Shown: positions 51,658-52,398 of the stretch, in pieces
Layout of the letters: every line of letters begins with the position of its first letter
Numbering within the stretch: position 1 is the first letter of the stretch
Assembly: GCA_019058365.1 (NCBI GenBank)
Contig: JAHPZE010000011.1
Location: 32,001 to 96,000, forward strand
Source: Promethearchaeota archaeon
Lineage (GTDB): Archaea; Asgardarchaeota; Lokiarchaeia; Sigyniarchaeales; SOKP01
Length of the DNA stretch: 64,000 nt
Direction: 5' to 3'
Translations under genes and position numbers: made by a program
Notes under the pieces: model-generated
What the model was told of the DNA's origin: nothing
Databases searched by the model: none
Seen by the model: the letters and a program-made list of their open reading frames with translations, nothing else

Positions 51658-51677
51658 ATTATTAAGAACCTAACTAA
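51658..51677. promoter_or_regulatory. Putative MarR operator (autoregulatory copy)
   Basis: ATTATTAAGAACCTAACTAA, 15/20 match to the palindrome at 52239. Confidence 0.6.
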
Positions 51678-51680
51678 GAT

Positions 51681-52157
51681 TTGATAATAATGGATGATAA
51701 GAATTCTTCAAAATCTTTAGATATTTATTGTCAACCAGAAGATATTGTTGAAGTTTTTGAACTTATTAACACATTAAATAAAAAATATGAAAAAATACAA
51801 CGTGAAAATATACAACAATTGGAGCTTACACCTACACAACATCTAATACTAAGAGAATTATGGAGATCTGATGGTCAACAATTTAAAAATTTAGCGGAAA
51901 CATGTAATTGTTCTAGATCCACAATTACAGGTGTAGTAGACACAATGGAGAAGAACGATTTGGTATCTCGTGACTCACATCCTAACGATAGAAGAAGCTT
52001 GCTGGTTAGACTTACAAAAAAGGGAAAGGACTTAAGAACTAAAACACCTCGATTAGAATCAATGGTAAATGGATGTTGTCCTGGAATCAATGAGGAAGAA
52101 ATAAAAAAATTAGGAGAATTACTCCAAAAACTACTGAATTCACTAACTTCTTTATGA
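51681..52157 (+). CDS. MarR family regulator with Cys residues
   Basis: LTPTQHLIL, CNCSRSTITGVVDTME, DRRSLLVRLTKKG, GCCPG. Confidence 0.9.
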   Translation: MIIMDDKNSSKSLDIYCQPEDIVEVFELINTLNKKYEKIQRENIQQLELTPTQHLILRELWRSDGQQFKNLAETCNCSRSTITGVVDTMEKNDLVSRDSHPNDRRSLLVRLTKKGKDLRTKTPRLESMVNGCCPGINEEEIKKLGELLQKLLNSLTSL

Positions 52158-52200
52158 AATTATTAAATCTTCATTCAATTTTGATTCTTTTTTTAATATT

Positions 52201-52220
52201 TTTGTTAGGATCTTAATTAT
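52201..52220. promoter_or_regulatory. Putative MarR operator
   Basis: TTTGTTAGGATCTTAATTAT, 16/20 match to the palindrome. Confidence 0.65.
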
Positions 52221-52238
52221 ACGAAACAAAACTTTTAT

Positions 52239-52258
52239 ATAGTTAGGATCCTAACTAT
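52239..52258. promoter_or_regulatory. Perfect 20-bp palindromic operator abutting a TATA-like box
   Basis: ATAGTTAGGATCCTAACTAT; TTTTATATA at 52233-52241. Confidence 0.75.
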
Positions 52259-52299
52259 CACCTAACTAATTAAAAATGTTATTGAGGTTATAATTACAA

Positions 52300-52398
52300 A
52301 TGAGAGATAAAAATGAAAAATGTTGTTCTGAAGGATGTTGTGGTGAAGAGACTAAAAGTGTAAAAGAAGAAATTCAGTCAAAAGAAAGATGTTGTTAA
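52300..52398 (+). CDS. 32-aa Cys-Cys-rich peptide, metallothionein-like (not in ORF track)
   Basis: MRDKNEKCCSEGCCGEETKSVKEEIQSKERCC; SD GAGGT at 52284-52288. Confidence 0.72.
   Translation: MRDKNEKCCSEGCCGEETKSVKEEIQSKERCC

Follow-up and report, generated by a model that had tools for sequence, protein, structure and literature searches.

The window analysed here is a stretch of 64,000 nucleotides (nt) from an Asgard archaeon (Promethearchaeota, assembly GCA_019058365.1; contig JAHPZE010000011.1, positions 32,001 to 96,000 of the forward strand), whose contig is AT-rich (29% GC). Its plus strand carries a gene for a cysteine-rich MarR-family repressor of 155 aa (marR, 51690..52157), a gene for an acidic micropeptide of 32 aa with Cys-Cys pairs (52300..52398) and, farther downstream, a flavoprotein gene and two genes that resemble hgcA and hgcB. 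Three copies of a palindromic site lie at the promoters of marR and of the micropeptide gene. From these features and their relatives we propose, with moderate confidence, that a homodimeric MarR that is released by soft metals or metalloids represses its own gene and the gene of the CC...CC micropeptide. The same-genus set comprised 20 orthologous loci (MarR identity 63-97%), and conservation is given as the mean top-base frequency over these loci. Genome-wide site counts refer to the 4.74-Mb genome, and 80 metagenome loci formed an independent check set. The kin genomes are not independent of one another, and the genus loci and genome-contig loci overlap in part.

The MarR protein matches PF01047 at 62.7 bits against a cut-off of 24.6, which places it in the MarR family. 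Profile searches of the PDB matched 110 MarR chains at E<1e-5, and solely helix-turn-helix (HTH) models of the MarR type matched the protein; the ArsR/SmtB model HTH_5 (PF01022) did not. An AF2 model (pLDDT 84) has the MarR fold, with helices at residues 16-44, 48-59, 65-71, 76-88, 110-126 and 135-151 and a wing at 92-108, and the top Foldseek matches are AbfR, SlyA and OhrR, plus MarR, at a probability of 1.0. The preliminary description of this DNA had pointed to CxC and CC motifs in the protein, and both are borne out: C72 and C74, C129 and C130, together with C14, are invariant in the 20 genus orthologues. In the model, C72/C74 lie at the turn before the recognition helix and C129/C130 in the loop before the last helix. 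Throughout the family, bacterial members included and with Chloroflexota and Thermoplasmata covered, C74, C129 and C130 reach a conservation of 90% or more. The N-terminal cysteines come and go across the wider family; a second one is present in 19/20 orthologues and is replaced by Tyr in the window copy. This pattern suggests that MarR is a member of an Asgard/Chloroflexota clade that is marked by C74, C129 and C130, with N-terminal cysteines in the Asgard members.

The putative autoregulatory site, termed OR (ATTATTAAGAACCTAACTAA, 51658..51677), is a 15/20 copy of the palindrome with a perfect right half-site CCTAACTA, and the marR ATG follows 12 nt on, at 51690. OR overlaps a TATA-like box (ATATAAAT, 51652..51659, plus strand), which was read from the sequence, lies within a block kept in the 20 orthologous loci and would form part of the marR promoter; the marR transcript is predicted to be nearly leaderless. 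The other two sites flank the promoter of the micropeptide gene. The distal site O1 (TTTGTTAGGATCTTAATTAT, 52201..52220; conservation 0.89) is an imperfect palindrome (16/20), and the proximal site O2 (ATAGTTAGGATCCTAACTAT, 52239..52258; conservation 0.91) is a perfect 20-bp palindrome at about -24 to -5. Directly downstream of O1 begins a B recognition element-like (BRE-like) sequence ACGAAACAAAAC, which together with the TATA box TTTTATATA spans 52221..52241 (plus strand, conservation 0.86) and is a putative promoter by the archaeal consensus. An extra half-site CCTAACTA (52261..52268, plus strand) lies at the predicted transcription start, and its AACTAA is kept in the alignment. The perfect palindrome and the 16/20 and 15/20 copies are thus located exactly as the preliminary description had reported, and O1 and O2 indeed bracket a TATA box, at 52233-52241. 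Moreover, O2 shares the last three bases of this box, OR overlaps ATATAAAT likewise, and the TATA-operator geometry is identical at the marR and peptide promoters.

These sites stand out by their conservation. A block of ~75 bp that runs from O1 through BRE/TATA and O2 to the half-site reaches 0.86-0.91 in mean top-base frequency, as against 0.48 for the DNA that separates O1 from the marR stop. The two central bases of O2 vary (AT, AA, TG, TT, CT) while the arms TAGTTAGG and CCTAACTA are fixed, which fits a dimer that reads two major grooves. Upstream of marR, a block TTATAAGGATATAAATTATTA.G..CCTAAC is kept in nearly all 20 loci, and two loci, from two species, have near-perfect palindromes at this position instead. 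The 18-mer core with up to three mismatches was seen twice in the window, where 0.03 sites are expected by chance. Across the genome, only four sites have up to four mismatches to the 20-mer, two of them at this locus and two within open reading frames (ORFs), and a further 52 sites have five mismatches. The 14-mer core with two mismatches showed no genome-wide enrichment (9 sites vs 15 for the reversed control), so that the case for operators rests on clustering, position and conservation and not on genome-wide counts.

A scan of the genome and its relatives for similar sites, as had been suggested earlier, had a divided outcome. Relatives retain the sites at orthologous loci and, in one genome, on the promoter of an hgcA-like gene, whereas the regulon search of the archaeon's own genome found no further strong sites at promoters. 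An 18/20 site on contig C47 and sites on C35, C16 (position 28424) and C46 were rejected as regulon members: all lie within ORFs. Elsewhere on C16 (G000:C16:304930-304943), a gene of 395 aa without a Pfam match has a core motif TTTAGGATCCTAAC before its ATG, downstream of a TATA-like TTTAAATAAAT; as only the core matches, the site may be either a fortuitous match or an additional target.

The type of site follows the clade of MarR. MarRs whose recognition helix starts with C-x-C-(S/T)-R-S-T pair with GTTAGG-N2-CCTAAC, and MarRs farther removed within the genus (51-57% identity), in which the helix starts with C-C-C-S-P-S-T, pair with GTTCGG-N2-CCGAA, both arms having changed symmetrically. A MarR of 42% identity that retains the Arg also retains the GTTAGG site. 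The pairing of operator type with MarR clade was reproduced in the 80 metagenome loci, three Arg-type exceptions apart. In genome G022, an hgcA-like gene on a contig other than that of marR is preceded by CCTTTAAATA and then by two sites, each with one arm mismatch, 20-60 nt before the start codon. This promoter (L120:245-300, G022:C237) has a TATA box, two near-perfect MarR operators 23 bp apart and a GTG start. Operators on an unlinked promoter indicate that the motif is a trans-acting operator and not a 3' structure of marR. In G003 and G015, both without a MarR orthologue, no such site was found upstream of the peptide gene. Like known MarR operators, OR, O1 and O2 appear as (pseudo)palindromes of 16-20 bp on the regulator's own or an adjacent promoter. 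The footprint of conservation, the clade-specific site variants and the identical TATA-operator geometry therefore support, in silico, the prediction that the three sites are MarR operators and that marR is autoregulated, as the preliminary description had supposed.

The micropeptide gene has a Shine-Dalgarno (SD) sequence, GAGGT, at 52284-52288, and its product has no Pfam match. An ORF of 27-38 aa with CC at both the N-terminus and the C-terminus is found at 19/20 genus loci and at most metagenome loci of the clade, and its acidic/lysine composition, its length and the C-terminal CC right before the stop are conserved. Additionally, the peptide gene and marR persist as a two-gene module at loci where a convergent gene or only a distant one follows, and this persistent pairing argues for a functional peptide and not a leader ORF. 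We infer that the micropeptide gene is the primary regulated target, and the vicinal thiols suggest that the peptide is probably a chelator or chaperone of a soft metal(loid).

Downstream of the peptide gene, a T-rich tract of T5, T7, T4 and T3 runs (52451..52474, plus strand) can be read from the sequence as a probable terminator of archaeal type for the peptide transcript. The tract, AAAATTTTTATTTTTTT, is kept in related spacers, and the genome has composite runs of this kind at a density of 0.043 per kb per strand. The spacer between the peptide and flavoprotein genes measures 188 nt. It contains the conserved T5/T7/T4 tract and, after the tract, a TATA-like box plus an SD; an operator-like site was not found in it. 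Upstream of the flavoprotein gene, the spacer also contains a block at 52484-52530 (GATTGGATA...TGTTAGTGATTAGAA...) with direct GTTAG/ATTAG repeats, which is common to just the three flavoprotein-bearing loci with the longest spacers (L008, L017, L021) and might serve the flavoprotein/hgcA-like operon as a control element of its own.

The flavoprotein (52587..53213, plus strand) belongs to the FMN_red family (PF03358, 92 bits), bears a C-x2-C-x2-C-x5-C motif and is optional, being present at only some orthologous loci. Its gene is translationally coupled to the next one (53210..54895, plus strand), whose start overlaps the flavoprotein stop and which encodes a 561-aa fusion of a CpaM-like S-adenosylmethionine methyltransferase to an HgcA-like corrinoid/membrane protein. 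The following gene (54944..55249, plus strand) encodes an HgcB-like 2x[4Fe-4S] ferredoxin with two Fer4 motifs and a C-terminal CCG. The order and strand of these genes agree with the preliminary description, but the names hgcA and hgcB are in doubt, because the scores stay under the NCBIfam cut-offs: the fusion protein reaches 175 bits for HgcAB_like (cut-off 285), 169 for HgcA NF040863 (275) and 137 for CpaM (180), and the ferredoxin 53.5 bits for HgcB NF040864 (99). In Pfam, the fusion protein matches CdhD and methyltransferase domains. The canonical cap-helix motif of HgcA is N(V/I)WCA(A/G)GK; in the fusion protein it reads NVWCAARG, with the Cys kept and the GK not. An assignment of the hgcA-like gene to canonical HgcA is unproven, and both genes are better described as putative HgcAB-like genes with a fused CpaM domain. 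The CpaM-HgcA fusion is kept across the order at 43-87% identity, and a second system in the same genome (G000:C48, L115:2456-4236) consists of a standalone CpaM of 219 aa and a fused HgcAB-like protein of 363 aa (GINVWCGACG). In published phylogenies, Asgard sequences fall in the fused-HgcAB clade, in which mercury-methylating activity is unconfirmed (PMC10083202).

Two further genes lie upstream of marR. A membrane protein of 201 aa (50911-51516, minus strand), with a GGGGGFGFF stretch and no Pfam match, is divergent from marR and occupies the same position in at least 14/20 orthologous loci (53-94% identity). A second FMN_red-family flavoprotein of 188 aa (50087-50653, plus strand), with a Cys-rich insert CTACMKC...RC, is encoded 1 kb upstream of marR.

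In the two genomes without a MarR orthologue, G003 and G015, a divergent ArsR-family regulator (L127:979-1368 and L130:795-1184, respectively) stands before the CC peptide-flavoprotein-hgcA-like cluster; it matches PF01022 at 5e-16 and has an N-terminal CGCxDC and a CVC in the HTH. The same regulator is found upstream of the hgcA-like genes in at least six further genomes, namely G011, G017, G029, G014 and G030 and, farther off, G033; the loci with this regulator include L116, L118, L119, L128 and L129. These arrangements suggest a non-orthologous displacement, in which the cluster would be guarded within the genus by a cysteine regulator whose fold is that of MarR or of ArsR. The preliminary description held ArsR-like regulators to be the more usual partners of hgcAB, and this also applies inside the genus.

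The relatives of MarR point to arsenic. In sister Asgard clades, the gene next to marR is arsM (NF008823, 333-336 bits vs a cut-off of 263). In Chloroflexota, marR and arsM form one operon, 10-20 nt apart, or marR precedes a small membrane protein. Among metagenome loci with a MarR identity of up to 58% and at least 1 kb of downstream DNA, arsM is present at 33/40. A maximum-likelihood tree of 58 MarRs placed all peptide-linked MarRs in one clade (support 96/97), which is nested in an Asgard group with the arsM-linked MarRs, and the Chloroflexota clade linked to arsM or the membrane protein is the sister group. In the arsM-linked Asgard clade (L037, L086, L089), a small ORF with C-x4-C...C-x-C lies between the TTCGG-type operator and arsM, and some loci also have a 267-aa DVU_1556-like methyltransferase. 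In the Chloroflexota homologues at L044, L046, L047, L049, L054 and L056, MarR forms an operon with a conserved membrane protein of ~130-150 aa that has the motif HAFVGW...C. No arsM was found in the window's genome and no ars gene in the window cluster.

Because the Cys triad is conserved family-wide, the nearest relatives are linked to arsM and an ArsR-family regulator replaces MarR in sister genomes, thiol or soft-metal sensing by MarR is supported in silico, in line with the thiol/metal sensing suggested by the preliminary description. By analogy, the effector is most likely arsenite, methylarsenite or antimonite, and Hg(II) is possible. The genome has no arsM and a separate arsR-acr3 pair, so that As(III), methylarsenite, Sb(III) and Hg(II) are all candidate effectors. 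In this pair (G000:C34:288167-289838, L131:3668-5339), genes for an Acr3/SBF-type permease and an ArsR-family regulator are arranged divergently, and a DUF3795 gene adjoins them.

Taken together, we propose the following circuit. The thiol-free (unliganded) MarR homodimer would bind palindromes of 18-20 bp of the form TAGTTAGG-N2-CCTAACTA. At the micropeptide promoter, MarR would occupy O2, which abuts the TATA box and reaches down to the start, O1 just upstream of the BRE, and the half-site at the predicted start, and its occupancy there would block the assembly of TBP, TFB and RNA polymerase. At the marR promoter, a weaker site at the same position relative to the TATA box would mediate autoregulation. 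Upon exposure, a thiophilic metal(loid) would bind the cysteine triad and release the repressor. The release would yield more MarR and more of the 32-aa CC...CC peptide, which may chelate or chaperone the same soft metal(loid). The flavoprotein/CpaM-HgcA-like/HgcB-like operon would have its own promoter behind the T-rich terminator and would be reached from the peptide promoter solely by read-through.

Whether the MarR regulon extends to hgcAB, as the preliminary description had supposed, depends on how this last step is read. Peptide, flavoprotein, hgcA-like and hgcB-like genes could form one MarR-controlled unit, since they share one strand, 17/24 species representatives of the clade have the hgcA-like operon directly after the MarR-peptide module, and the G022 operators sit directly on the hgcA-like promoter. 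We consider a single unit doubtful for this locus, however, given the 188-nt spacer with its T-tract, TATA-like box and SD and without an operator-like site. Moreover, module and operon are apart in many genomes (the module occurs without hgcA-like genes at many loci, and the converse is also found), and no operator was detected up to 2 kb upstream of unlinked hgcA-like genes in the 13 other genomes checked. Direct MarR control of the hgcA-like genes is therefore unlikely in this genome, where read-through is possible, and likely in G022, whose operators suggest a functional link at the genus level. The paired Cys codons that precede a T-rich terminator might also be taken for a cysteine-codon leader, with the CC...CC ORF attenuating the downstream operon. 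This is highly improbable: the downstream genes are outside cysteine biosynthesis, the ORF stays with marR even if a convergent or remote gene comes next, and its composition, length and terminal CC before the stop are all conserved. It is just as improbable that the palindromes are something other than MarR operators, namely a hairpin or terminator at the 3' end of marR or the site of another factor. The perfect palindrome does lie 82 nt past the marR stop, and symmetric arm changes would keep an RNA stem too. A hairpin would nevertheless have a loop of just 2 nt, O1 is kept as an imperfect palindrome, and the Rfam search of 51400-52700 matched no family. The same motif also occurs upstream of marR and on the unlinked G022 promoter, always abutting a TATA box. 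Conservation, the tracking of operator type with MarR clade, the G022 promoter and the absence of the motif upstream of the peptide gene where MarR is missing (G003, G015) argue strongly against both a marR 3' hairpin and a chance palindrome.

A different question is what MarR senses. It could be a sensor of thiol oxidation (peroxide or disulfide stress) of the 2-Cys OhrR/AbfR type, in which an N-terminal Cys that becomes oxidatively linked to the C-terminal CC pair or to C74 would free the DNA, and the peptide and the Fe-S flavoprotein would serve redox defence. The redox-sensing AbfR and OhrR (PDB 1z9c, 2pex, 5hlg) are indeed the best structural matches, and among NCBIfam and PDB models those of OhrR match best. 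These proteins likewise sense by cysteine, with one Cys near the junction of the last two helices, and the CC pair lies near the resolving-Cys position of 2-Cys OhrR, as judged from alignment ranges; an FMN_red flavoprotein is among the neighbours. We nevertheless regard this alternative as unlikely, since the NCBIfam equivalog OhrR NF052638 scores 50.6 bits, far under its cut-off of 200, and the sensing Cys of OhrR helix 1 is not conserved, with no Cys aligned to it by the alignment offsets. Furthermore, no ohr, peroxidase or peroxiredoxin gene is found among the neighbours, the family-wide partner is arsM, and the regulator that replaces MarR in sister genomes is an ArsR-type metalloregulator. 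Several observations also weigh against the metal(loid)-released repressor that we favour. OR is weak when taken alone, a 15/20 match of a class with 52 members genome-wide, and was accepted because it is conserved at orthologous loci. The window copy of MarR is without one N-terminal Cys (Y13), and the triad positions are unlike those published for MarR_ars, an arsenic-responsive MarR. Three Arg-type metagenome loci bear both site types, so that a strict specificity code based on Arg/Pro where the recognition helix starts is weakened. Finally, the genome without arsM has the arsR-acr3 pair elsewhere, so arsenite need not be the signal of MarR.

For the metal(loid)-released repressor, MarR_ars is, by analogy, the closest functional counterpart, and not the family of this protein. 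MarR_ars (AdMarR_ars of Achromobacter sp. As-55) acts as a repressor of arsV and of its own gene, and As(III)/Sb(III) free it via the Cys triad C36/C37/C157 (Yu et al. 2021, bioRxiv 10.1101/2021.08.12.456183). Both regulators share the MarR fold, a Cys triad with a vicinal pair, linkage to arsenic genes (here via the arsM of sister clades) and, as predicted here, autoregulated repression, and a release from DNA upon metalloid binding would be expected here as well. Compared by published positions, the triad of MarR_ars consists of C36/C37 in the N-terminal helix and C157 in the tail, whereas here it would consist of C74 in the HTH and C129/C130 before the last helix. No equivalent of the MarR_ars triad was found, as judged without a residue-level alignment: residue 130 is the last Cys of the protein, and the N-terminal CC varies, with just C14 left here. 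MarR_ars members are bacterial and precede arsV, arsN or arsP, whereas here the host is an Asgard archaeon, the putative operators lie on TATA/BRE promoters and the target would be a micropeptide beside HgcAB-like genes.

According to PMC10349881, HgcR/ArsR2 of Pseudodesulfovibrio mercurii ND132 (Gionfriddo et al. 2023, cited there) is likewise an arsenic-linked Cys metalloregulator before hgcAB-type genes. It has the ArsR/SmtB fold and is co-transcribed with hgcAB, whereas the regulator here has the MarR fold, with putative operators on the peptide and marR promoters and, only in G022, on an hgcA-like promoter. MarR genes upstream of hgcA are mentioned there in passing for two bacteria. BldR/BldR2 and ST1710 of Sulfolobus (PDB 2eb7, 3gfl) are archaeal MarR dimers that are autoregulated and bind palindromes at or near TATA/BRE; they respond to aromatic compounds and are without the cysteine motifs of the window MarR. 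On an arsenic-responsive MarR beside arsM, or an archaeal MarR beside hgcAB, the literature yielded just the passing mention in PMC10349881 and the MarR_ars preprint. Metal(loid)-released MarRs, such as MarR_ars, and the control of hgcAB by ArsR are already known. What is new here is the archaeal promoter architecture, the micropeptide as putative primary target, a different Cys triad, a clade-specific operator switch and the apparent displacement between MarR and ArsR at an HgcAB-like cluster.

To our knowledge, only one ArsR-like regulator, in a single bacterium, has been studied so far among the regulators of hgcAB-type genes. We propose a complete archaeal circuit, in which a sensor would control a micropeptide target through defined operators, three in all, at TATA promoters, and the short DNA probes and the 155-aa protein are suited to direct electrophoretic mobility shift assays and metal-binding tests. 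The Cys triad, with an HTH Cys and a vicinal pair before the last helix, would be another convergent site for arsenic or soft metals on a regulator scaffold. Within one Asgard genus, an HgcAB-like operon is repeatedly found beside a cysteine metalloregulator of the MarR or ArsR fold, and the nearest relatives of this MarR adjoin arsM; independent lines of comparative evidence may thus tie the HgcAB-like clade to metal(loid) stress. As a tentative extension, which we hold to be unlikely at present, the Asgard HgcAB-like system with its fused CpaM could act in a soft-metal(loid) response, in which a MarR or ArsR sensor induces the CC...CC peptide, which would capture the metal(loid) and deliver it to the flavoprotein/HgcAB-like machinery to be methylated or detoxified. 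If this is true, the native substrate and signal of a large HgcAB-like clade would be an arsenic-like metalloid or Hg(II), and the micropeptide would represent a new class of metallochaperone.

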